Origin: a virus
Reading direction: 5' to 3' (one strand)
DNA: 64,000 nucleotides
IMG/VR virus record: IMGVR_UViG_3300009085_000002
Coordinates: 24,966-88,965 of that record
Shown: in pieces, positions 24,801 to 44,301 of the stretch
How the letters are laid out: the number at the start of each line of letters is the position of its first letter
Numbering within the stretch: the stretch's first letter is position 1
Notes under the pieces: generated by a model
Seen by the model: only the letters and a program-made list of their open reading frames with translations
Told to the model about the DNA's origin: nothing
Database searches by the model: none
Made by a program: the position numbers and the translations under genes

Positions 24801-26875
24801 AAAAAATTGAAGTATTAGGAGAAACTTTACAAAGATTAGAAACTACGTTTAATACTGATTCTAAAGGAGTTGGTAAAAATTTTATAGAAGTACAAACTAA
24901 ATTAGACAATCTACAAAGTTTAGAAGGAGAGTTTTCCAATATTAGTAATATAGGAAATTTACTTAATAATTCTATTTCAGGATTTGCAATTACTGAAGGA
25001 TTATACAATGTTAATAAATACTTTGGAGCTTTAAATCCTTTTAATAGTAGAAGTTTTAATAAAGTAGAAGAAGACTTTAAGAAAGCTACAAATAATGTTA
25101 CTTCTCCAAAGATTAAGCAATTACTTTGGAATGGTATGAAAGCTTATCTTTATAATACTACTGGTACAGATCTATATATAAATAATATAGAACAAGAAAG
25201 AAAAAGAATCTATTTTGATACTTATAAAAAAGATATAAAAGGGCACTACTCTTTAGCTTCTATAGTTAAAGATATACAAGATAAAAAGATAATAAAAAAC
25301 TATTTATTAAGTTCATTCCAACCACAAATTGAAAAGAATGGTAATCCTTCTTTATTAAAATTTAATGCAGCACAGGGAGAATTATTTGATGATAGTATTT
25401 ATTTTCAAGCTTTTTATGACTTATTAAGAAATAAATCTTTAGGGATTTATAATGGTAAAGAATATACTACTTTAGATTTAGCAAATGATTTAGTAAGATA
25501 TACAATGCTAAATGGTAATTTACAAGAATCTAAAGATTTTGCAAGATATATTCCTGTTGATTATTTAAAGTTAAACAATCAATTCTTAAATTATCTTAAT
25601 ACTATAAACTTAGAAGATGATTCTAAATTTGGTATTATAGAAGGAGGTAAAGATTGGGATATATCTAATTTTACAATTCAATTTATACAACATAATCCTT
25701 GGTACATAAACTACGAAGTTACTTCTACAAAAGAGTTATCTAGTATGGATAATAAATCTTTAACTAGTGTTAAGAAGTTTAAGATAGAAAATATAAAAGA
25801 TCTTCCAGTATTTGTTAAAATTGCAACTACTAATAATACTAAAGGATTTAATATTTATAAATTTAATGGAGAATTTTATGAAAAATTAAATGTTTTGGGT
25901 TCTAATTTCTTTACTGAATATAATATGGATAATGATAATATACAATCATCTATATATAGGAATTTTGATCCTTTTATACCTAATAAAACTTTAGTACCTA
26001 ATTCTCCTATTAATCCTATTAATCCTAAAGTATTAGATAAAAATATAGTTACTGAATTTGGAATTAAGGAAGGTAAAAATATAGAACAAATTATGATTAA
26101 TATAAGAGATCATACTAGTTCAGATTTTTATAAACACTTAATAGATCATCTACTTAGAAATAAACAGATGATTCAAGATACTATGGTCTTAATAGATTCT
26201 AAAGTTATTGAAGCGGCTTCTTATAATTCTAGAGATAATTTATTAACAATTAATCCTACTGCACCAGTAAGGAACTTTGAAGATACTTTGATACATGAAC
26301 TATTACATGCTTATACTTCTAGATTAATTAGGAATCCTCAAACTCCTGAACAACAACTAATTGTAATGAGATTACAGAATGTACAGGAGTTATTAAAATC
26401 TAAAATAAAAGAAGGTTTTAAAGGATTAAATCAACAAGAATTAGAATCTTTTGAAAAGAAACTTAAACAATATAAGATTGATGGTAAAGTTACTTTTACT
26501 TCAACCGATTTATCTAAGTATTATGCAACTATTTCTTTACCCGAGCTAATATCTATGACTATAGCAGACCCTATTACTAGAGATTTAATGAAGGATATAG
26601 AAATAGAACCAAATACTTCTTTATTACAGAAAATAAAAGAAATACTTATAGATCTTTTAAATACTCTAATTTCTAAACCAGAATTTTTAACTAATACTGC
26701 TTTTAGTGAAGTGTTAAGTAATACTTTACTGTTAACTTCTAAAGAATCTAATCTTATTGAAATTGAAGAAGGTATTAATGAAGAGAATAATTTTGTAGAT
26801 TACCAAGATGATATTATCTTTACAGAAGAAGAATTAAATGAGTATGATAGTATGAATAAATGTAAAAAACTTTAA
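15896..26875 (+). CDS. giant virion-packaged DNA-dependent RNA polymerase with C-terminal zincin-like domain
   Basis: 3659 aa; catalytic-type GSDFDVDK (DxDxD, ~23936-23950) preceded by GFRIPTQ; KRLAG, STDAQ, KPVY and ESAVKVG motifs; HELLH at ~26294-26308. Confidence 0.85.
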   Translation: MPDPKLDIRALEELNNSTQSNDIRQKEFGDEDLKKKNLPKLSQEDFEYLANTQTELEPHKAISRPFLTSKYDEPLQPGESIKDNSWIEKHRANNQPWHHEATNAIAGGITKGVFGAIENMGYLLDFTTQLGYNNILDKAESNAVSDAFRQARLKVDEVLPIYKDNPDTFLDGWRATSDILQNVTEFAIPGGIIAKGIGKGVSLLGKLGRYGNLLANSETATEILSTVPTAYLTNRMESARMAVEDFEQNMQMLSPYIKAGQISSEKAAQIAQDEANKIYMRNLPMMWTDILALKGIIKGSKLTRGAYNKTQKQLNRSLFNKVTEFTGQNALEGLEETYQGIAEREATYNTLKRAGIDPKGIYNGNLGERISNYLGDKSLQYEALLGFMAGGMQRLGAQVVSGGFYSNKDRDRDQQLQNDREELLTSTSSNLQGMLQSFIKKETSKQEAINKGYSHEAELWDDIDYINNITAHLSYGTVDKLESVLDVVEQDGIKSFGEESSLTQEDEPQIKTAARELKDKLRFAEKKWLKYSNLPFKSRVSTVNNEMIYTSLEKVGKGLDSKISEIKDDIRKVIESSNFKEHLGNIKLDEPRKAFLGNKDLNAQYTNFIEQTSNDKITELEQLQQDKAGIENYKRNLRTSISESTTPKAIAKAKREEMNDIEKQKEKIVEETNNLKKEKTRENRSKQEYDNLSSRAPNADNISKLDNIDKEIKSNKFLNSRDKEELFKNIKAQRDHLEKIKTQPKVVSTEEEVTKPSEFTEGFTTLEDMGIEPPTGTNKVKDIQIGNHIAKLNYDNTYSFFRKSKEGKLSLLNNPTVSTIKEAKIVLSELNKELDIKESNNQEELSELLSKQDRNSDPDTYTSESNKSVNSNNTQSELNEGSLKQPGSIFDTNKDDKNSGYSSITQAYNTIAWLGRKYRQETRDNNTVIIDLEDELNESSFKLLMDPDKFLPGSKITLEVEDDDSVPMYDLNLRDFESITTWGEYKKSLMENRVFEDLTNEEKDLYISNIPVRIIDEYNNKLGYIHRTEWSDIDRISGDVELDRKNNLELRKSVYEKSSLNTEITYKSYGSLMSAVDNKKDSLKNRFKDPNLVISVWNHETQSLQLSRDKKYKGHKDDILVNTTLVSGIPYVIAKIQKNTYMGIPVTSSKIKDYNKDLSNSLLKVVDIWTKSNSKQPLIPIEQSLVDQIMDMTNNDVRTFRGFRDFIKIFLKDYNTKGKDLKSFDRNDLKVSDADGIIHFTGNSIEFFTGGLDKVLEIGTNTPINSINNLKLILKNVVDNAYINVNLDYMENNNFYVPFIQENKVIDLNNGKSYKDFLKEVLNTNLLSFNIGTEETPNFIYTTQQVITFDSKLNPISTREENNTITTPQSLITKNVNIENKTKEGFNEFFGKYTASLDDFIDEMPLVTKEEDIEIDDPYIMKGFNFYEQSLIINSSLGTILDFVKAADEQNAGLKVNKTLESYKKSIESVRDDYQEIGNKKMTDFYNKWLNNYDKFSNILKLKFQRLRDVHNKGLIGDIEEILNEDFEDTTTLEKSFNDDFYLTLNKANKTTARFRYFLTGIKRLDKNGNPQLYAPGLYKTVNFDEVFSTLQRLLSNIRSNYNTMYNELLQYKNSIDWMPDFLKKLDKSSERTKKEFAVTMGSSYINMKFSMWSQQGKENYFQTWDANANSTSKFLQQQWKDNIVDTNLIILDPKSTEYKLNESISNKLLEDFNKFKESLVTIDNKDIINWLSNLGINVSDGVIKHIRTNNIRIQTSESNKVGVKLSWDQQFETSGIFGNLNEKLKTLLKQQKDGEEINFTDLFNGRPINTFARIIASIEDIISPNSFVIANKTYYPFSLTKFLTDRTRDILEDKMVINALLNNSYSKDSLLLNRMVSRDKGGNIEFLDSSIRKVFDIQYTSPEALRKISDKEGRKDEINEFTPQELEAFQANLFFDTRSKLNNGKDRKVIITLPPLSDKHNLMLLETIAYRPSYIESKAQLSNSDLQVLYSQLVLPDLRRMLVEKENLPDIDKYKEGQNLFYLFPELNKFDEFFDNNGKIVDDILDPNKDYISKIKSILNDFYIKEANTIVNKWKEFGLITKDSRYLNEQYFKENLDNKEFDEQNFLAALDYSINHAIMKSNIYQLYVGDIAQYYKSSKSKSKLDQVKDTIDNVGKRLAGLNATGIDLTNNDENTFDILIAKDISTTSFNIEQLSNTLYNKSFTRQQLLQMNKKTLESEYPYLYPYVYINSTDAQELTTWRDHLYIMNQRGLLDEEVYKEIYDKLEQGKELTSEQLGTVMQPMKPVYFGDVYGENPQFLRKLYVKSSSYPLLSQLTKGTNLDNLRIKLEDYEKETKRNIRVAYESAVKVGSIKNKATLFNEDGIFNEKLDINNHVIKNVPRRHFKIQQDIPYNEAKKEISMGTQGSKLLFDTVRFIKDKVFNGKTGTELYSNYLQLHKELLKIGQKELEDKLNYNSSTGTINIKKLQELLLNEAIERGFSINEIKGLGLKNNKFVIPPYLSGNWKKYQALLTSLVTNKIIKQQFPGIAVVLGSETGYKIKEGTEETINSYNIVYTNKDIKFLKPIRLVKKDIYEKSKVEEEPSKQDLNNGNYITLGSQVILPWRFKDNEGNLINIQDYLNEDNTLNLDKIDPKLLEWIGFRIPTQKHSSMTKIEVVGFLPNLSGDLIIASQDLVAQMGSDFDVDKLYMYRYNYMVEDGILKVGVNDENAKKINQNKIIDIYHQVLSNKEIVKKMMKPLDYGKLKELSDKYKSFIKEDSYNPLSPLWNMDKFFQANSGGKLGVASFALTSVLNAQAQGLNLQFLKDDGSPFEINFGDFKSNGTISGEHVIGDNTRSISDVISAYLSSSVDNEKERILEKLNINNHTFPIIKVLTLMGFDEDVVIPFINQPIIKQYINEVFKLNSKFSQVKGKIGKIAFDNIINSDTYKTNTSIKDLEAISDIGPIEMVKFLTMENPPKDIQIGLLRKFKKIEVLGETLQRLETTFNTDSKGVGKNFIEVQTKLDNLQSLEGEFSNISNIGNLLNNSISGFAITEGLYNVNKYFGALNPFNSRSFNKVEEDFKKATNNVTSPKIKQLLWNGMKAYLYNTTGTDLYINNIEQERKRIYFDTYKKDIKGHYSLASIVKDIQDKKIIKNYLLSSFQPQIEKNGNPSLLKFNAAQGELFDDSIYFQAFYDLLRNKSLGIYNGKEYTTLDLANDLVRYTMLNGNLQESKDFARYIPVDYLKLNNQFLNYLNTINLEDDSKFGIIEGGKDWDISNFTIQFIQHNPWYINYEVTSTKELSSMDNKSLTSVKKFKIENIKDLPVFVKIATTNNTKGFNIYKFNGEFYEKLNVLGSNFFTEYNMDNDNIQSSIYRNFDPFIPNKTLVPNSPINPINPKVLDKNIVTEFGIKEGKNIEQIMINIRDHTSSDFYKHLIDHLLRNKQMIQDTMVLIDSKVIEAASYNSRDNLLTINPTAPVRNFEDTLIHELLHAYTSRLIRNPQTPEQQLIVMRLQNVQELLKSKIKEGFKGLNQQELESFEKKLKQYKIDGKVTFTSTDLSKYYATISLPELISMTIADPITRDLMKDIEIEPNTSLLQKIKEILIDLLNTLISKPEFLTNTAFSEVLSNTLLLTSKESNLIEIEEGINEENNFVDYQDDIIFTEEELNEYDSMNKCKKL

Positions 26876-34610: not shown

Positions 34611-35435
34611 TTATTTAGACCAACAATTAGATATTTTAACATCTACAACCACTGGAACTTTTTTTAATATTATTTGTCCTGCTTTTATCATAAGTTCTTG
34701 TAATTTAGCTTTCCATAGCTCTGCTTCACTTTTTAAGCACTCAGTTTGTAATTCATCATATATCTGAAGAATAATTCCAGCATTCCATTCATTATCATCT
34801 ATTTCGTCTTGTATATAAATCATTGCTTGCTTAATAATATCTGCATTAGCGCCTTGTATAGGAGAATTCATAGATGCCCTATTTATACTACCTAACCATT
34901 TATTTTTAGAAGGTGTATTAGGATTATCTTGAATATAATTCCATTTTGGAAATTGTCTTATTCTTCTAAAAGGTTTAGGAGTTCTAATATAACCATAAGT
35001 TTGACCAAATAAACCCCTTTCTTTTAAAAAAGCTTCTACTTTAGGAACTTTAGAAAAGAATTTTTTAATTATCTCTTTTGCTAGATCTACAGATATACTA
35101 GCTGTATTGGATAATTTATATTCGGTCATACCATAGCTCAAGCCAAAGTCGATGGTTTTCTGTAAGTATCTATAAGTAATTGAAGGATTATGAGGATAAG
35201 GCTCATTAACCCTACTAATATCTATATCAAATGTTTCACTACATAATATACTATGAAGATCTTTTCCTTCTTTAAATGTATTAATCCATAGAGGTTCTTC
35301 AGATAATTCAGCTATTATCCTTAGTTCCATATTAGAATAGTCTCCCCCAACAATAACATAATTATCATCCCTTGGTATAAAACAACTTCTAATTATAGTA
35401 CCTAGCTTACCCTTACGTGGTATCTGATTTAAATT
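34611..35435 (-). CDS. polA: DNA polymerase family A, exon 2 (polymerase motifs A, B, C)
   Basis: NLNQIP; motif A DYSNMELR; motif B RYLQKTIDFGLSYG; NSPIQG; motif C QIYDEL; joins exon 1 in frame after intron removal (660 aa total). Confidence 0.9.
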   Translation of the reverse strand, partial: NLNQIPRKGKLGTIIRSCFIPRDDNYVIVGGDYSNMELRIIAELSEEPLWINTFKEGKDLHSILCSETFDIDISRVNEPYPHNPSITYRYLQKTIDFGLSYGMTEYKLSNTASISVDLAKEIIKKFFSKVPKVEAFLKERGLFGQTYGYIRTPKPFRRIRQFPKWNYIQDNPNTPSKNKWLGSINRASMNSPIQGANADIIKQAMIYIQDEIDDNEWNAGIILQIYDELQTECLKSEAELWKAKLQELMIKAGQIILKKVPVVVDVKISNCWSK

Positions 35436-36256
35436 CACCATTTGTTATGATTTATCATTTCATAACGGTGGACTATATCATCTACTAATAATTTAATTTG
35501 TAATTTTTTTCTTTCTAAACAAAATTCATCATAATCTTCATATAAATCAATAGAGTGTTTCCAAAAATCTGTTCTTGTACTCATCTCTTTACCTAATTTA
35601 TTTTTTACAGGGTTTATACTTAGATCATAATTATACCAATATTTAAAGGCATTCTTTAAATCTTCTACTAAATATGATGAATGAGAATACCACCTAATAA
35701 TAATATTATGCTCCGTATTTCTTATATTACCATCTCCATCTATAAATCCTCTTAAAGCCATTTTAAAACAAGTTTTATTGTAAAATATTGGAAATTTTAC
35801 ATTACTAGTTTTATTTGGAACTCCAACACCTAATGATATTAATAAGTCTACTAAATATTTATTACTTATAGTTAACTTATAAGAGTAATGATTGTCCTTA
35901 GTCTTAAATTTATATACAGGAGTTAATTTATCTTTAGAAAAATATTTTGATAACCTTTCTAATATTTTAGGAGAATCAGTTATAGCTAAAGCTACTCTAC
36001 TATTTTTTAGATCTATGTATCCATCAGATACTATACATCCTATATAATATGCAAATATTGGATTATTTATATCAAATAAATCTTCATTGTAAGTATACTT
36101 TATTTTTGATCTAATATTTGTTAATTTATAATCTTTTATTAGTTTTTCTATATACCATAATCCAACATTTTGTTCTTCTGCTATTTCTCTTTGGGACTTT
36201 CTATTTAAGACCCACTCATCATGTAAAAATTGTTTAGTTATTTTTATTGTATTCAT
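35435..36256 (-). CDS. intron-encoded LAGLIDADG homing endonuclease (two motifs, N-terminal HTH-like segment)
   Basis: FAYYIGCIVSDGYI and ALRGFIDGDGNI motifs; located between intron P3' and P7'. Confidence 0.88.
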   Translation of the reverse strand: MNTIKITKQFLHDEWVLNRKSQREIAEEQNVGLWYIEKLIKDYKLTNIRSKIKYTYNEDLFDINNPIFAYYIGCIVSDGYIDLKNSRVALAITDSPKILERLSKYFSKDKLTPVYKFKTKDNHYSYKLTISNKYLVDLLISLGVGVPNKTSNVKFPIFYNKTCFKMALRGFIDGDGNIRNTEHNIIIRWYSHSSYLVEDLKNAFKYWYNYDLSINPVKNKLGKEMSTRTDFWKHSIDLYEDYDEFCLERKKLQIKLLVDDIVHRYEMINHNKW

Positions 36257-36528
36257 AGGAATATTTTATAATATTTCCACAAATATAACAAATTTTATGA
36301 AACATTCAAGTAAAAATTAAAATTATTTTTTTAGTAGTCGGACGCTTTTTCATTAATTTATTATTAATTACTTCCTGTTATTAAGTAGACTTTACTACTC
36401 AGGTAGTCTCTGAACCTTCTAAAAGTGTACTTTTAGCTTGGCTGCTGATTGCCCTTATTATTTGATGGGTTTCCAGCAATTCATCCGATTCATTATAAAA
36501 ATTACTTTTTATACGCCCAATATATCTT
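35436..36528 (-). mobile_element. group I self-splicing intron (1093 nt) in polA
   Basis: Core elements on the - strand: AATTGCTGGAAA (P), AATCAGCAG (Q), GTTCAGAGACTA (R), GATATAGTCC (S); P3 TCGGAT/GTCCGA; exon 1 ends in U with P1 CCU|AA:UUGGG; terminal G at 35436; splicing restores TGRISVSVP-NLNQIP. Confidence 0.92.
36280..36310 (-). promoter_or_regulatory. Bacteroidota-type promoter inside the intron, upstream of the endonuclease ORF
   Basis: CTTG, 19-nt spacer, TATATTTG on the - strand, ending 24 nt upstream of the ATG. Confidence 0.55.
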
Positions 36529-37686
36529 AGGGACACTTACAGAAATCCTACCGGTGCTGAGTATCTGCCATATAGAAGGATGGATTCTCTTGGTAATAGG
36601 GTTTATCTCAGATAGTAAGGAGTCTCCAAAACTTGTATATAATTTATGATATTCATTATATTCTAATAACTCTTTTACTATGGGATATTTATTCTGGATC
36701 TTCCTAAGAGATTCTGATTTAGTATCTTTTAGTGTCTTATCATATTCTTTTAATATACCTAATTTTTGTTCTGGAGAATCCCAATTTATATTAACATTTA
36801 CTTCATGGGTATACATATCTTCTGTTAGAACAATAGGAACTTTCTTATTTCTATTCTTCTTCTTTACAGTTATATATTTTATCTTATCTTTTAATATAAA
36901 AGAATTTAACTTTCTTTTAGACTCTTCTAAAGTTTTCTTAACTTCTGTAATAACTTCTTTTGTATACTTCTCTTTATCTAATCTTATACCTCTATAAAGC
37001 ATTTTAGCAAATACTCTGACTACTTTATTTTCTAGAATTTCAACTTCTCCTGTAGAATAGAATCTTTTATTAAATCTAATTAAAGCTTCTTTCTGCTTAT
37101 TTATTATAGGCTCTAATACTTTAACATCATTTGCAGCATATTCTATTACAGCTTGAGTTAAACCCATATACTGTATATTACCTCTTATAGACTTATCAAG
37201 ATTAAATTTTAGATACTTTTCTGATAATTTACCTAATGAAAACTTTCTAACTACATATTTCTTAGAATCTTCTATTGTAGATTCTTTTGCTATATCTTTT
37301 TCATCTAAATCATTATTATAACCACAATATAAAATATTTTCTTGTAGTTGAGTATCTGATATATTTTTAACATCTGTACTATGATGTAATAGAAACCTTA
37401 AGTCAAATTGGGCATTAGCAAATATGAAAGTTTTATTACTTTCTAAAAGATCTTTATATCTTGATATATTAATACTTGATAAATCTATAACAAATTGATT
37501 ATTCCAATCTCCTAATTGAAGAGTTAACATTTTTTTAGTATAGGGATCAAATCCTTCTGTTTCACTATCTATACCTATAAAAGCATGATTCTTAAAATAA
37601 TTTATAGAATCTTCTATAGAACAATACTGAATTAAGTCTTCATTATATTTACTTAAACTAGTTTGATTAGTTACTAAATATATCAT
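36529..37686 (-). CDS. polA: DNA polymerase family A, exon 1 (3'-5' exonuclease and thumb)
   Basis: ExoI IDSETEG, ExoII NAQFDL, ExoIII YAANDV; NWDSPEQ; RIHP..STGRIS. Confidence 0.9.
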
Positions 37687-39001: not shown

Positions 39002-39379
39002 TTATTTATTTTTATGGTATTGATAAAACATAATATTAGCCATTATATGACCTACATGAGATAATTTAGATTCTTTATCAAATTCTTCTTTATTAATTAA
39101 TTTAAATAAGTGTCTTGCTAACGATTCCAATGTTTCATTTGAATCTAATCCTTTTTTCCAATTATCTTTACCAGAAGATATTAATTTGTATTTATTAATA
39201 TCTTCTATTGGTATTTCAGAACCTCTAATTTGATTTCCTTTATCATCTTCATAAATACTATATTTATGTGCACCATATTCTAGAACTTCTACTAGAGGTA
39301 ATAGTGACTCAAAATCTATTAAACTCCATTTAGGTTTTCCAGAATTATATCTTAATGCTTTTTCTTCTTTATTTTCCAT
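39002..39379 (-). CDS. dATP/dGTP diphosphohydrolase-like protein (DUF5664)
   Basis: RYNSGKPKWSL...VLEYGAHKY...DNWKKG...SLARHL...DKESKLSHVGHIMAN. Confidence 0.75.
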   Translation of the reverse strand: MENKEEKALRYNSGKPKWSLIDFESLLPLVEVLEYGAHKYSIYEDDKGNQIRGSEIPIEDINKYKLISSGKDNWKKGLDSNETLESLARHLFKLINKEEFDKESKLSHVGHIMANIMFYQYHKNK

Positions 39380-40284
39380 TATATGTCTATAACTTGATTT
39401 ATTTCTATTTGTTTAGGTACTTCAGTTATTACTGGAAATTTAGGCAAAACTCCAACCTCTCTTATAAAATCTTCGTCACAATCTAATAAACGGAGTAACC
39501 TATAATTCTTTTGAAATTCATAAATACCTTGAGAAATACCATATTTATTGATATATTCCGTGGGTATTAATTCTTCAAAAGTATTTCCATATTGAGAATA
39601 TTTTTCACATATTTTCTTAAAATAAGCCTCACCTTTTCCCTCAATACCTTTTATTCCATCAGGAACATCTCCACAAATCATTGATTTCCAGAAACTTATA
39701 TAGGCGCCTTCTACACTAGTTTCAATCCACCAACCTTTATTAAAGTCACTATCTGTTAATAATTCTTTAGATTTACTCTTAGATTCTTCTTTAATTTTAT
39801 AAGAATAGTTAAAGTGTCTGCCTGGCATGTTTTGAAGAATATCCTTATCAGGACTACAAATTATTTTTGTAACTTCTTCTAAACAATCTCCTAATTCTAC
39901 ACAAGTTAATTTATAAAAGATATTTTTATTATCTTTTTCATTAACATAGCCATATATTAAATCTTCATTATACCAATAAGCAACTAAATCATCTGCTTCC
40001 ACCAAATTCATCCATTGTGCATTCCATTTCTCAATTAGATAAGATTTAAGACACTTTAACCATTTAAGTGGACTCTCATACTTACTTCTATTAGATTTAT
40101 AATTAGAATCAATCTTATGCCTAAAATATGGAGAATTTGAAATAAACATTATATAATGAGTTGCTTCTGTTTTTTTAAACATGTTTTGAATTCTTTCATC
40201 AATACTAAGTAAGGACTCTTCTAGAGAATCCTTACTTGAATGATATACTAACCCATCTGCATCAATCAATAAGAGTTTTTTCAT
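39379..40284 (-). CDS. 5'-3' exonuclease (T7 gp6 / Pol I 5'-nuclease-like)
   Basis: LIDADG, FR..I...YKSNR, EADD, SPDKD, GDVPDGIKGIEGKG motifs. Confidence 0.85.
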   Translation of the reverse strand: MKKLLLIDADGLVYHSSKDSLEESLLSIDERIQNMFKKTEATHYIMFISNSPYFRHKIDSNYKSNRSKYESPLKWLKCLKSYLIEKWNAQWMNLVEADDLVAYWYNEDLIYGYVNEKDNKNIFYKLTCVELGDCLEEVTKIICSPDKDILQNMPGRHFNYSYKIKEESKSKSKELLTDSDFNKGWWIETSVEGAYISFWKSMICGDVPDGIKGIEGKGEAYFKKICEKYSQYGNTFEELIPTEYINKYGISQGIYEFQKNYRLLRLLDCDEDFIREVGVLPKFPVITEVPKQIEINQVIDI

Positions 40285-40786
40285 ATTCTAAAAATTCTTT
40301 AGATAATTGTTCTTGTGTTTCTGATTTATAATCTTCTATTGTAGGATTATGAACTTCTAAAAATTCAGATATTATTAAATGAGGTTCCCACATTAATAAT
40401 TTAGTTCTACTAGAAATTCCTAAAGAGTTCATTGATCTCTTTAGTCTGGAAAAATATGTAGGATTTATATTAAAAAATATGCTATTTGCTATTACATAAG
40501 TAGTATTTACTTTTCTATCTTTATTTTTAATTACTAATAAAGCAATAGGGTCCTCTATAAGAATACCTCCAGTAAATTCATAGTAATTAATACCTCTTCT
40601 ACTTATTATGTGATTAATAAAATTATTCTGAATATTTAAACAGTTATCTAGTTTAAACATATTCTTAGTATCTCCATATATATTATTCTTTAACTCTTCT
40701 ATTCTATAATACAACTTATTTTGTAAATTTTTACGTTGAAATATAATAGGACTAAATTCACTTCCTCTTTTTAATATTATTCCCAT
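40262..40786 (-). CDS. hypothetical protein directly downstream of the E1-like gene
   Basis: 174 aa, starts 2 nt after the E1 stop and overlaps the exonuclease start. Confidence 0.55.
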   Translation of the reverse strand: MGIILKRGSEFSPIIFQRKNLQNKLYYRIEELKNNIYGDTKNMFKLDNCLNIQNNFINHIISRRGINYYEFTGGILIEDPIALLVIKNKDRKVNTTYVIANSIFFNINPTYFSRLKRSMNSLGISSRTKLLMWEPHLIISEFLEVHNPTIEDYKSETQEQLSKEFLEYEKTLID

Positions 40787-40788
40787 AA

Positions 40789-41448
40789 TTATTTTATTTC
40801 TATATAAAAAGGTTCTCCTACTTCTTTAATACTGAAAGGTATACTACAAATAGGTTCTGAAGAATATTTATTAGTTAAATAATTTGCTACTACTTGAGTT
40901 ATTCTAGCACCTATTAAGCCTGCAAAAAAAGCTGTTTGCTTAAATGTACAAGGACCTTCATCTACTTCTTTATCATCAAATAAAGTTTTTTCATACTCTT
41001 CTTCTTTTCCTGGAGTAACTATATATATTTCATATAAAGTTGCTCTTAGCCTACCATCTATTAACAATTCTCTACTATTTTGAACTTTCCAAGCTTGATA
41101 TACTAATTTTCTAGTTTCCATATTATCTAAAGCTGTAATAGTTATAGGACTACAGAATTCTGAACTATAAGATTGTTTAAAAGTACGTATATAGCCTAAT
41201 TCACAATTTGTTTTAATAGATTCTACTTTATATTTTCCAAGTTGATCTTTTTTAAAAAACTGGCTGCCTATATTATGACTTTCAACTATATCTTTGTCTA
41301 TAATATTATATATAGCTGGAATACTTTTAGTTAAAAAATATAATGCATTACTTCCTATTCCACCACACCCAACTAGTAATATTTCTTCGTTTTGACTCTT
41401 TTCAAACCAAGGAGAATCTTTAGTTCTGTTAAAATATTTTATATCCAT
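40789..41448 (-). CDS. ThiF/MoeB-family E1-like ubiquitin-activating enzyme
   Basis: LVGCGGIGS nucleotide-binding loop, IDKDIVESHNIGSQ, K, ALDN, DGRL; candidate catalytic Cys in EGPCT; no CxxC Zn pairs. Confidence 0.85.
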   Translation of the reverse strand: MDIKYFNRTKDSPWFEKSQNEEILLVGCGGIGSNALYFLTKSIPAIYNIIDKDIVESHNIGSQFFKKDQLGKYKVESIKTNCELGYIRTFKQSYSSEFCSPITITALDNMETRKLVYQAWKVQNSRELLIDGRLRATLYEIYIVTPGKEEEYEKTLFDDKEVDEGPCTFKQTAFFAGLIGARITQVVANYLTNKYSSEPICSIPFSIKEVGEPFYIEIK

Positions 41449-42531
41449 TTATTCAATGTAAGTTATTAATATATTTTTTATAATTTCAAAGAAATCTTTA
41501 TTTTCATAAGTATCCTTAAAATCCATTAATCTATTTAAGGCTTTTATACAATTATATCCTAATTTAGTTGGAGAATTATAAATACTTTCATGAATTAATT
41601 CTAAATTAATATCCAAACTATTTTCTAAAATATCTAAATCAGCGTCTTTTACAGAACCTAAATATTTAAGAGTTTCTTCTATACTATTGTTAGATTTAGT
41701 TACATCTAAATTTAGCCAAGCACTTAAAAAAGAATCTACATTATTGTTAGATATAATTTGATTATTATCCTTTATAGTAGAACTTTTATTAAAGACTTTA
41801 GATAAAGAATTTCTGTAAGTACTATTATGATTATAAGGATATTCAAAATCAGAATATGAGCTTATATTAGCAACAGAAAGTTCTTTTTTCTTATCTTCTA
41901 AAATTTTAATTCTATTCTTTAACCACTCAGGATTTTCTATATTATTATCTATAATAACCTCTAAATCTCCTATTAATAATATATCTTCTTCTTTAGTATT
42001 CTTAAATGGAGTTAATTTACCTAATGTATTTTTAAACCAACATTCTCTAGTTGTTTTAGATTTAGAAGGAACTGCTATTTTTGCACAATATTCATGCGAA
42101 AAATTAACTATTAAGGATACATAATAATTATAATTATAAGCATTAGTCTCTAACTCTGATAAATCTGTATTTGAGAAAAATGTGCTCATATTATGATGAG
42201 AATGTATTAATCCAGTAGACATGCTAATACCTTCTTTATGTATATCATAAGCATTTATTATTTCTCCATTATATTCAAATTCTGTATAAGCATGTGATCC
42301 TATATTCATAGGATATATAAAATCTGCTAGCACTTCTAGATCCTTTAGGTTATCTATATTTCCTTTAGAAATCTTATAGAATAGTATACCAGACCATTCA
42401 GTACTTCCTACTTTGTAATGTAAATAATTTATAATTTTTAGTAAATCTTTAGTTATTCTTAAAACACCTATTTTACCAATAGATACTTTTTTAACTTCTT
42501 TAATTATATTATTTGATATTGTTTCAGACAT
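41449..42531 (-). CDS. JAB/MPN+ (JAMM) metalloprotease with C-terminal extension
   Basis: EWSG...IHSHHNMSTFFSNTD = E...HxH-x7-S-x2-D. Confidence 0.85.
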   Translation of the reverse strand: MSETISNNIIKEVKKVSIGKIGVLRITKDLLKIINYLHYKVGSTEWSGILFYKISKGNIDNLKDLEVLADFIYPMNIGSHAYTEFEYNGEIINAYDIHKEGISMSTGLIHSHHNMSTFFSNTDLSELETNAYNYNYYVSLIVNFSHEYCAKIAVPSKSKTTRECWFKNTLGKLTPFKNTKEEDILLIGDLEVIIDNNIENPEWLKNRIKILEDKKKELSVANISSYSDFEYPYNHNSTYRNSLSKVFNKSSTIKDNNQIISNNNVDSFLSAWLNLDVTKSNNSIEETLKYLGSVKDADLDILENSLDINLELIHESIYNSPTKLGYNCIKALNRLMDFKDTYENKDFFEIIKNILITYIE

Positions 42532-43724
42532 TATATAGTTATATTTAATTTTTTATTAATAAGATATTCTTCAAAATTAGACTCTATTTTATCTACTACT
42601 TCTCTTAATATAATTCTATGAATTTGTTTAGGATAATTATCTTCTTTCATATTATTAATAATTTTAGAATATATATCTTTTCCATTAAATTCTAAACAAA
42701 GTTTAGGATCATCATTAATAAAATTATTATCAACTATAGGAGTATAAGAAATATTATTTTTTTGTATATAACAATTTTCTGGATATTTATTTGTTAATAT
42801 AGAATCTATTAAATCTATTGATGATTGACTTAACTTTATTGTATAACAATCTTTTACTATTTCAAAAGTATATTTAAAATTATTTATAGTATTAATAATA
42901 TAATTATAATACATATTATTCAAAAGTTTATTATTCTCATCAGTAGAAAGAATACACTGCGAAAGATTATTAGTTTTTAATAAATTACTAATAAACATAT
43001 AAGGACTACCTTCAATACTTTCCCAACTTAAATAAGAAGGTATACTTATTAATATAGAAGAAAAATCACTAAGCCCACCTTTATATATTTTATTTATAGA
43101 TTTCTGTAACTCTGTATTTCCAAAGCACAAACTACTCCATTGTCCTATCTTATTACTACGAGCATGAGAAAATAAATAATTATTTAAATATTCTGCAATA
43201 GATACAGTAGTTCTTGTCATATTAATATTTTCTACTAGCCATTTAGAATTTGTATATCTGAAAGTAAATTTAAAATATATATCATACATAGTATGAGATA
43301 ATTCAATACTATTTGTAATAGTTGTTTCTGGAAAATATAATGTTAAAGTAATAGTACGACTATCATAAATATTTAGCTCATAAGAATCTTTAGAATATAG
43401 TTTGCATACTGTAGCTTCTAAATAATGTGCAAATTTTTCATTATTAAATTTATGTATTTTGTTAAATAATAATTCCTTTAAATATATTTTTATATCTTTA
43501 TAATTTAGAGGTATAAAGGAATCATGAAAATTAAAGTACGACGCCATACAAATATTAGTACTAGTTAAAGTTTTATAGAATATATAATTTTTAAACACAT
43601 ATTCTTTTATTATTATATATGTATTATTAATATCTATAAAATATTTAGCTTGATGAACCGATTTACTTAACTCCTCTTTTAATTCCTTCTCTGATAACTT
43701 TAATAATTCTTCTGGTATTTGCAT
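42531..43724 (-). CDS. prokaryotic E2/UBC-like conjugating enzyme (putative)
   Basis: Beta-meander followed by YLFSHA-x-LCFG (His at ~43165, Cys at ~43126) then helices; sits between the Ubl and JAB genes. Confidence 0.6.
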   Translation of the reverse strand: MQIPEELLKLSEKELKEELSKSVHQAKYFIDINNTYIIIKEYVFKNYIFYKTLTSTNICMASYFNFHDSFIPLNYKDIKIYLKELLFNKIHKFNNEKFAHYLEATVCKLYSKDSYELNIYDSRTITLTLYFPETTITNSIELSHTMYDIYFKFTFRYTNSKWLVENINMTRTTVSIAEYLNNYLFSHARSNKIGQWSSLCFGNTELQKSINKIYKGGLSDFSSILISIPSYLSWESIEGSPYMFISNLLKTNNLSQCILSTDENNKLLNNMYYNYIINTINNFKYTFEIVKDCYTIKLSQSSIDLIDSILTNKYPENCYIQKNNISYTPIVDNNFINDDPKLCLEFNGKDIYSKIINNMKEDNYPKQIHRIILREVVDKIESNFEEYLINKKLNITI

Positions 43725-43742
43725 AATTTATTAAATAAAAGA

Positions 43743-43772
43743 AAGATAGACTATAATACTATAGTCTATCTT
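43743..43772 (-). terminator. intrinsic terminator between the Ubl and E2-like genes
   Basis: Perfect 13-bp stem AAGATAGACTATA/TATAGTCTATCTT, 4-nt loop, followed by TCTTTTATTT on the - strand. Confidence 0.7.
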
Positions 43773-43782
43773 ATAGTTAATA

Positions 43783-44301
43783 TTATTTTACTCTTCTTGC
43801 TAAATCTTCAACTTCAGCTTGTAATTCTTTCTTTGTAGTATAATCAACTAATGTATTTTTTTCTATTGCTTCTGAATTTTTTATTACAACATTATCTGAG
43901 TTCTTTGTTATAGTTTTAGTAGCACTTTTCATAGGTTTCTTAGTTATACTATTCCAAAAACCATTTAATTCTTCTGTAGTTGCATGTGTATAATTAAATG
44001 GAACATCTCCTCCATTTTCTTTATACTCTTTAATTTTTTCTTTAACTTCTCTATAAGATAAGTCTACTCCAGATTTAGTCTTAATAGGTACTACAAATAA
44101 CAAACAATCAATAGCAGGTAGTACTGCTTCATCTAATTCATAAGTATCGTGTGTAGCTCTGTCAATTAACTTTACAGAGCCCCAATTAATACCATATGAT
44201 GATAATTCTGAGCATAGTTCTCCTCTAGTGCGAGCACTAGTCTTTACTGTAATAACATCTTGTTGAGTTAACAACTTTAATTTCACAACACGTGTTGTCA
44301 T
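43783..44301 (-). CDS. ubiquitin-like (beta-grasp) protein precursor with C-terminal extension
   Basis: Residues 1-78 follow a beta-beta-alpha-beta-beta-beta pattern ending LLFVVPIKTKSG (Gly78), then a 94-aa extension. Confidence 0.65.
   Translation of the reverse strand: MTTRVVKLKLLTQQDVITVKTSARTRGELCSELSSYGINWGSVKLIDRATHDTYELDEAVLPAIDCLLFVVPIKTKSGVDLSYREVKEKIKEYKENGGDVPFNYTHATTEELNGFWNSITKKPMKSATKTITKNSDNVVIKNSEAIEKNTLVDYTTKKELQAEVEDLARRVK

Follow-up and report, generated by a model that had tools for sequence, protein, structure and literature searches.

Does a bacterial virus run a protein-tagging pathway of its own? The question is raised by four consecutive minus-strand genes at positions 40789-44301 of a 64,000-nucleotide stretch of viral DNA (the window; positions 24,966 to 88,965 of IMG/VR record IMGVR_UViG_3300009085_000002), which the open reading frame (ORF) listing gives in the order ubiquitin-like protein (Ubl), E2-like protein, JAB peptidase and ThiF/E1-type adenylating enzyme. 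A preliminary description, made from the sequence, had taken them for a complete phage-encoded conjugation operon. Its gene coordinates and junctions were reproduced here, namely the TAATG overlap, with a single shared base, between the E2-like and JAB genes and the abutting TAA-ATG between the JAB and ThiF genes. Likewise, all of the motifs it had named (K-S-G78, YLFSH-x12-CFG, JAMM, GxGGIG and GPCT) were read back from the DNA. We consider it probable, at roughly 0.68, that the four genes form a self-contained phage-borne Ubl-E2-JAB-E1 conjugation pathway, a strongly diverged relative of the PRTRC/6d cassettes of mobile elements.

The first gene encodes a 172-residue protein, and conservation is the strongest point for its identity as a tag. 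Gly78 is invariant in the 41 homologues found by database search, in each of the 55 distinct homologues that related contigs supplied and in all 46 members of an alignment in which it is the sole invariant column (mean column identity 15%). Most homologues end this segment in [ST/N]-K-[SA]-G, with a single glycine, and what follows differs widely: tails beyond the conserved glycine are 1-267 residues long and of several unrelated types, while five distinct sequences, from six loci, stop 1-4 residues past it. Near-mature forms and variable tails of this kind are as expected of a processed Ubl. As judged from sequence, the conservation pattern is what a putative ubiquitin-like modifier would show if produced in precursor form and then cut back to its C-terminal glycine. 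The beta-grasp fold expected from the preliminary description was also recovered in the AlphaFold2 model (built with the 41 homologues), in which residues 1-72 adopt a ubiquitin-type beta-grasp with strands at 4-10, 16-21, 43-47 and 66-72, a helix at 26-32 and a lower-confidence tail onward to Gly78; the predicted local distance difference test (pLDDT) is 90-96 over blocks 1-70 and exceeds 90 for the first ~72 residues. Foldseek against the PDB returned two matches at E<=0.001, and the best matches were DWNN and UBX domains followed by many ubiquitin chains. For ubiquitin-type chains the template modelling score by target was 0.63-0.73, with a root-mean-square deviation of 2.1-2.8 over 75-81 columns, and neither ThiS nor MoaD was among the PDB matches listed. 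The extension after Gly78 is modelled as helices 83-95, 109-121 and 157-171 with a disordered stretch at 123-153. When Pfam, PHROGs, NCBIfam and PADLOC were scanned, the protein matched PHROG 15560 alone, a family of unknown function, and had no match in Pfam, NCBIfam or PADLOC.

The tails of the homologues have features of their own. Several share an S-Y-x-E-L-R motif (for example in loci L013, 4836-5447, and L015, 5042-5632), an N-Y-T motif is common to many others, and the Pfam families HeH and SAP_new25 each match one of the 46 tag members at ~4e-4, which hints that some extensions could bind DNA. In one locus (L023, 4706-5697) two tag genes stand in tandem, coding for 148 and 157 residues, both with an N-K-A-G end.

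The second gene encodes a 397-residue protein of a large family (3019 cluster representatives at E<=0.001), in which the motif read from the DNA, Y-L-F-S-H, 12 residues, C-F-G, places His187 and Cys200. Both residues are invariant in two homologue sets (75/75 and 57/57) at 21-38% identity to the window protein. The AlphaFold2 model (75 homologues; pLDDT 91.1, predicted template modelling score 0.82) is laid out as an N-terminal domain (1-90), a UBC/RWD-like core and a C-terminal alpha+beta domain (258-397). Within the core, a helix (95-107) is followed by a four-strand meander (115-175), the loop with His187 and Cys200, and helices at 205-233. The loop contains invariant Y183, S186 and H187, a short strand and invariant C200-x-G202, and its His and Cys lie 13 residues apart between strand 161-175 and helix 205-214. 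In this regard, meander, His, Cys and helices follow one another in the core in the order of E2 enzymes, whose layout has been described in these terms (Iyer et al. 2006). When the model was compared by VIA-align with 48,161 representative PDB chains, the best Z was 6.5 and 40 of 50 rows, classified by reading entry titles, were E2, UEV, RWD, FANCL or Cap2 entries; Mediator subunits, THO, capping protein, transposase, Spt6 and DR_1245 made up the other 10. In a second structural comparison, with Foldseek's best 1000 chains, all 50 rows were of E2/UEV/RWD type (Z 5.8-6.8), with 101-138 residues aligned to targets mostly ~150 residues long. Since no single Z-score is high enough, the call of a UBC/RWD fold rests on the enrichment of this superfamily in the match list. 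The modest Z values (5-6.8) and the make-up of the lists suggest a UBC/RWD-like core, in line with the UBC fold proposed beforehand for this protein, and this without support from any sequence profile.

The 360-residue product of the third gene carries, as far as its sequence can tell, a complete and invariant JAMM signature, H-S-H-x7-S-x2-D downstream of Glu45, whose codons were checked. None of the 38 homologues departs from E45, W46, G78, H110, H112, S120 or D123. Matches to the JAB models of PADLOC (0.0038) and to PRTRC_A (0.043) stayed below threshold, and the profile of this family had no meaningful match among PDB sequences.

The fourth gene encodes a 219-residue protein with a clear Pfam ThiF match (E 8e-15, 55.1 bits against a cut-off of 28.1, residues 16-190). 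A profile of 40 homologues, 26-64% identical to the window protein, matched UBA5, UBA6, MccB, PaaA, the NEDD8 E1 (NAE/UBA3), the SUMO E1, ThiF, MoeB and Cap2 in the PDB over residues 16-121. Fourteen positions are invariant in 40/40 homologues: R8, G27, G29, I31, D53, N59, K74, D108, R113, W120, R133, Y152, F157 and C167. By comparison with MoeB and ThiF, we take G27, G29, D53, N59, K74, D108, R113 and R133 to be the ATP/Mg site. Cys167, in the G-P-C-T motif, is a candidate for the catalytic cysteine on sequence grounds; the PDB profile alignments stop at residue 121, and hmmalign leaves the C-terminal half of the Bacillus ThiF protein unaligned. The conservation that had been predicted for Gly78, for the His and Cys of the E2-like protein and for Cys167 thus held throughout the homologues. 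Longer forms of the enzyme also occur, such as Gp76 of crAss001 (L080, 4545-5696), with 383 residues and a ThiF match from residue 149 and hence an extra N-terminal part of ~150 residues, and a 384-residue ThiF form in locus L030 (7989-9143).

The gene order is widely kept among related phages. We assembled 66 loci, two found through the E1, 61 through one conserved E2-like peptide, two from annotated GenBank phages and the window itself, and labelled the ORFs in all of them with iterated hidden Markov models (HMMs); some loci are duplicates of one another. The order tag-E2-like-JAB-ThiF is kept in 55/66. Six further loci are cut by a contig end (three hold tag-E2-like-JAB, two tag-E2-like, and one starts inside the E2-like gene), and in the remaining five the JAB gene or both enzyme genes are split by an insert, one of these also having a duplicated tag gene. 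Additionally, tblastn with the E1 found 74 GenBank phage records, each covering at least 80% of the protein: 29 Flavobacterium phages of the FpV4-like group (38% identity), 29 Bacteroides phages (crAss001, DAC15/17, PhiCrAssBcn), 12 uncultured crAss-like phages and four others. In crAss001 the cassette corresponds to Gp79-Gp78-Gp77-Gp76, between primase and uracil-DNA glycosylase (UDG), and in Flavobacterium phage FpV4 it lies downstream of UDG. Both sets match all four phage HMMs (E 1e-28 to 1e-94) and keep the K-S-G end and the JAMM motif; the His...Cys loop is also kept in Gp78 of crAss001.

Regarding the inserts, the JAB gene is interrupted in L016 (6827-11053) and also in L021, L023, L042, L045 and L046, and in L016 and L021 the ThiF gene is interrupted too. 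The one gap measured, in L016, is ~1.1 kb, and both L016 inserts encode LAGLIDADG endonucleases. Homing elements usually occupy conserved, needed genes.

Public annotation has recognised the cassette in part. The phage records matching the E1 label it 'thiamine biosynthesis protein' or 'hypothetical', and, as the preliminary description had supposed for single components, crAss001 and cr111_1 carry the annotations 'ThiF' and 'metalloprotease domain'; the tag and E2-like genes are labelled 'hypothetical' in the public records examined. Our literature search found no published account of the cassette in crAss-like phages, although supplementary gene tables may name these genes, and a 2026 preprint mentions in passing a gut-phage family resembling UBA5. 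A phage-wide version placed in the replication module, with a tag and an E2 that are not recognisable, and present in cultured crassviruses, appears to be undescribed.

Outside phages, the nearest relatives found by sequence search appear to be PRTRC-like plasmid cassettes. We take PRTRC (NCBIfam TIGR03735-03737; A, B and ThiF), from taxon lists, to be the same as type 6d. The fullest plasmid matches to the E1 were on megaplasmids of the Bacillus cereus group (88% covered, 23% identity). A Bacillus mycoides plasmid (NZ_CP036001; L067, 1-6200) has a Prok-E2_D/PRTRC_B protein (214 residues), a PRTRC_A JAB (321 residues), a 133-residue ORF and PRTRC_ThiF, all of these PRTRC matches being below the NCBIfam cut-offs. 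Among the phage HMMs searched against Bacillus loci, that for ThiF matched at ~1e-14 and that for JAB ranked the Bacillus JABs first (0.003-0.05), while those for the E2-like protein and the tag found no match in the Bacillus plasmid loci. The order E2-JAB-E1 is common to phage and plasmid, which gives positional support to the 397-residue protein as the E2. The plasmid cassette likewise stands beside a replication gene, with dnaN a few genes upstream; a nucleotidyltransferase/HEPN pair follows it. As a kind, mobile-element cassettes of stand-alone Ubl, E2, JAB and E1 genes are known, having been predicted in 2006 as type '6d' (Iyer, Burroughs & Aravind 2006). Like these, the phage cassette encodes as individual proteins a small Ubl whose terminal Gly is conserved, a Cys-bearing E2-like protein, a JAB and a small ThiF-type E1, and it too is carried by a mobile element (Iyer et al. 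2006). However, the phage ThiF scores 30 bits against an NCBIfam cut-off of 144.75 and the JAB 13.4 against 101.8 for PRTRC_A, and the B and C models gave no match. Furthermore, the 397-residue phage protein is roughly double the length of its PRTRC counterpart, has additional domains at both ends and places a His ahead of the Cys; the Ubl has a long variable extension, and the carrier is the replication module of a crAss-like phage of lytic type. No ParB was seen among the cassette neighbours that were scanned. On these sequence comparisons, we file the cassette as one that probably works like the PRTRC kind, and not as a PRTRC member.

Several observations weigh against a complete conjugation pathway. 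No di-glycine end was found on the tag, which has S-G or A-G in place of G-G. The JAB protein reaches only 18.3 bits with Pfam Prok-JAB (E 0.0022, residues 106-136), below the gathering score of 25, and the E1 is far smaller than the E1s of Bil systems, with no separate Cys domain. Furthermore, the co-occurrence of the four families is conditional on the E2-like and ThiF genes, because the loci were collected through those genes. As for the E2-like protein, its structural Z of 5-6.8 is at or below the level (under 8) that the VIA-align notes call typical for unmatched models, Foldseek found no PDB match to its model at E<=0.001, and the H-P-N motif of E2s is replaced by F-S-H. No E2 family matched it in Pfam, PHROGs, NCBIfam or PADLOC; Pfam also gave no match on 75 + 41 members of its family, nor did the family profile match PDB sequences. 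The Prok-E2_D model had no match in the phage's own genome or in five related virus records, and hhalign of the family and of its core, with one and then four Bacillus Prok-E2_D proteins, stayed under 1% probability. Among sampled genomes Prok-E2_D is rare, with 2 of 401 carrying it in the phylum to which the Bacillus genome belongs, so a deep alignment of it could not be built. A further word-based search for homologues, run with the 75-sequence profile, brought in hardly any new members, and a genome-collection scan of limited sensitivity, using two peptides conserved in the close E2-like alignment, gave 22 pattern matches of which none was confirmed. In the ESM Atlas, neighbouring viral clusters carry Prok-E2_D on 15-20% of their members, which is a lead and not a test. 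A complex prediction of the E1 and residues 1-78 of the tag with the E2-like protein as partner scored 0.00 and is evidence neither way.

These results bear directly on an alternative that we consider unlikely, in which the E1 and JAB proteins act on the beta-grasp protein while the 397-residue protein serves as a UEV/RWD-like scaffold without catalytic activity or is some unrelated enzyme, and Gly78 is passed straight to an acceptor or used in a reaction of the MccB/PaaA type. The E2 identity is indeed drawn at the level of fold, where true E2s reach no higher scores than UEV and RWD domains, no sequence route led to an E2 profile, and the E1 profile has MccB and PaaA among its top PDB matches. 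Moreover, several polar positions of the family away from the His/Cys loop are likewise invariant (N138, H144, D148, R171, E178 and W234-E-S), and these are not known features of classical E2s. Against this alternative, Cys200 and His187 are invariant at 21-38% identity, and a catalytic Cys is missing from non-catalytic UEV/RWD domains (for RWD, Iyer et al. 2006). His and Cys also stand in a loop past the beta-meander, in the order of classical E2s (Iyer et al. 2006), and the gene occupies the E2 slot of PRTRC cassettes. A conjugation pathway with a catalytic E2 is the more probable reading.

Less probable still, and disfavoured, is a sulfur-carrier relay of the ThiS/MoaD/CysO kind, in which the E1 would adenylate the beta-grasp protein, and a thiocarboxylate formed at Gly78 would donate sulfur to the modification of a nucleotide, DNA or tRNA, with the JAB enzyme serving to mature or recycle the carrier. 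The cassette does resemble the ThiS-ThiF and MoaD-MoeB pairs, in which the C-terminal Gly of a beta-grasp protein is activated by a ThiF-type adenylating enzyme of ~220-250 residues, and in NCBIfam the E1 matches ThiF/MoeB equivalogs best, over residues 14-82 only and far below cut-off. Genes of nucleotide metabolism lie nearby (a dATP/dGTP diphosphohydrolase N-domain protein and UDG), and sets of Ubl, JAB and E1 tied to sulfur assimilation have been described (Iyer et al. 2006). However, those pairs lack an E2-like partner, whereas here a UBC-like protein with an invariant Cys is strictly co-conserved. In addition, the complete 88,965-bp genome has no match to the ThiS family, to rhodanese or to PP-loop ATPases, while 13-14 of 14 control genomes matched; the earlier statement that no cofactor-biosynthesis genes lie nearby holds. 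The tag, for its part, ends in a single Gly, and its listed structural matches are of ubiquitin type with none to ThiS or MoaD. Lastly, E1s of E2-containing operon types never carry a rhodanese domain (Iyer et al. 2006). The role in thiamine or molybdopterin biosynthesis implied by the label 'thiamine biosynthesis protein' is rejected, as no partner genes for it were found in the genome, and chance ORFs are ruled out by the conserved families, since each gene has many homologues and the four families co-occur in the same order.

The known antiphage systems of bacteria offer parallels in part. Bil (BilABCD) also has a stand-alone Ubl, E2, JAB and E1 and no E3, its E2 being proposed to recognise targets directly (PMC11601596). 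Its E1, however, joins inactive and active adenylation domains to a Cys domain (PMC11601596), whereas the phage E1 is a single ThiF domain, and Bil defends the host by tagging the tail proteins of phages, while the present cassette is encoded by a phage. Bub systems ('6E'/DUF6527) resemble the cassette in Ubl precursors of varied architecture and in the exposure of a reactive end by JAB cleavage, a Ubl fusion being cut there by a JAB-E1 protein (PMC11601596). Bub enzymes are fused (Ubl-E2, JAB-E1, E2-E1), form oxyester intermediates on Ser and include the DUF6527 serine protease (PMC11601596), in contrast to the four separate genes and invariant cysteines of the phage; DUF6527 had no match among the 10 phage ORFs scanned. 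Type II cyclic-oligonucleotide-based antiphage signalling systems (CBASS), with Cap2 and Cap3, likewise pair E1 and E2 modules with a JAB peptidase. PADLOC E1-E2 models match the phage E1 in the nucleotide-binding part only (up to 2.9e-10) and the E2-like core has Cap2 as one of its structural matches (Z 5.2), but a nucleotidyltransferase was not seen in the phage cassette. Membership in Bil, Bub or CBASS is ruled out by these differing architectures. In phages, TAPI (Ubl) and TAPK (JAB) of lambda and T1 offer a beta-grasp domain with a conserved Gly, a C-terminal domain and a predicted release by JAB (Iyer et al. 2006), yet they come without E1 or E2 and belong to the tail module, not the replication module.

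The preliminary description had treated the four genes as a single operon. The genes, their order and their motifs stood, but they are not one tight unit, as a 58-nt spacer with a perfect 13-bp hairpin and a T-run separates the Ubl gene from the three enzyme genes. This hairpin folds at -15.2 kcal/mol (z -3.6), and an equally good fold appeared in 1 of 200 shuffles. Of 42 equivalent gaps (20-450 nt) in 48 distinct related loci, 38 have a predicted simple hairpin, 28 of these with a U-rich tail, in a count made without a control set. Median gaps along the cassette in related loci are 61, -49 and -11 nt, the overlap sizes being inflated by the choice of the longest ORF.

Folds, motifs, invariance, synteny and genomic setting were computed here, and from them the steps of a mechanism can be proposed by analogy with the known pathways. 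The 172-residue precursor would be made in excess over the enzymes, a surplus proposed because the hairpin terminator follows the tag gene. Cleavage behind Gly78 by the JAMM peptidase would release the variable extension and leave the Gly carboxylate free. The minimal 219-residue ThiF-type E1 would then adenylate Gly78 with ATP and take the tag onto Cys167, from which it could be transferred to Cys200 in the UBC-like core of the 397-residue protein. Because no E3 is present, the extra N- and C-terminal domains of this protein may choose the target directly, as has been proposed for E3-less Bil (PMC11601596). The final acceptor would be a lysine in some protein of the phage or its host, and the tagging could perhaps also be reversed by the JAB enzyme. 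The genomic setting points to a target tied to replication or early takeover, or to counter-defence. We would put even odds on the wider proposal that crAss-like phages, among them the cultured crAss001, DAC15 and FpV4 groups, encode a complete, active Ubl pathway that tags a replication-linked phage or host protein or disarms a host defence.

Bacterial Ubl conjugation has so far been characterised as antiphage host defence, in CBASS Cap2/3, Bil and Bub (PMC11601596, PMC11601603). Here, machinery of that kind is a conserved phage component of the replication module in a group that includes the most studied gut crassviruses, and two of its four parts, the tag and the E2-like protein, escaped the present searches with Pfam, NCBIfam and PADLOC. 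If the proposal is true, protein 'ubiquitination' would be run by a bacterial virus and not by its host, and the extension after Gly78 could be a releasable second product or a tether. Cultures exist of crAss001 on Bacteroides intestinalis and of DAC15 on B. thetaiotaomicron, so function is directly testable, and the long-unexplained PRTRC-type cassettes of plasmids would gain a tractable viral relative.

The parent record is a complete virus of 88,965 bp with direct terminal repeats and a G+C content of ~25%. The cassette is situated within its replication module, as had been said of it. Upstream on the coding strand are a DnaB-type helicase, an AAA_24 ATPase and UDG, and downstream are a 174-residue orphan ORF, a 5'-3' exonuclease, the dATP/dGTP diphosphohydrolase N-domain protein and a family A DNA polymerase (Table 1).

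Table 1. Positions of the cassette genes, their domains and motifs, and selected neighbours in the window.
Feature	Position	Strand	Remarks
Ubl precursor gene	43783..44301	-	172 aa; ORF listing
Ubl domain, residues 1-78	44068..44301	-	Beta-grasp and flexible tail ending K-S-G78; translation checked
Tag C-terminal extension, residues 79-172	43786..44067	-	Predicted to be removed
Terminator-like hairpin, Ubl/enzyme spacer	43743..43772	-	Perfect 13-bp stem, 4-nt loop, then T-run
E2-like protein gene	42531..43724	-	397 aa; ORF listing
UBC/RWD-like core, residues 92-256	42957..43451	-	From model
His187 of E2-like protein	43164-43166	-	
Cys200 of E2-like protein	43125-43127	-	
JAB/JAMM metallopeptidase gene	41449..42531	-	360 aa; ORF listing
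Glu45 of JAMM motif	42397-42399	-	Codon checked
H-S-H-x7-S-x2-D, residues 110-123	42163-42204	-	Codons checked
ThiF/E1-type adenylating enzyme gene	40789..41448	-	219 aa; ORF listing
G-C-G-G-I-G, residues 27-32	41353-41370	-	E1 motif
Cys167 (G-P-C-T)	40948-40950	-	Candidate catalytic Cys
Orphan ORF	40262-40786	-	174 aa; directly 3' of ThiF gene
dATP/dGTP diphosphohydrolase N-terminal domain protein	39002-39379	-	Pfam 1.8e-21
Family A DNA polymerase	34611-37686	-	Split over two ORFs
Polymerase ORF 1	36502-37686	-	Exonuclease and Pfam DNA_pol_A positions 29-127
LAGLIDADG ORF between polymerase ORFs	35435-36256	-	Family match
Polymerase ORF 2	34611-35441	-	Pfam DNA_pol_A positions 127-380

The orphan ORF next to the ThiF gene has no match in Pfam, PHROGs, NCBIfam or PADLOC, and homologues of it occur in just 8 of the 66 loci, which places it outside the conserved core of the cassette. 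The protein of dATP/dGTP diphosphohydrolase type, encoded close to the UDG and exonuclease genes, may have a bearing on nucleotide-pool control or DNA modification in the phage. Lastly, the split of the polymerase over two ORFs with a LAGLIDADG ORF between them suggests an intron, an intein-like insert or a split gene.

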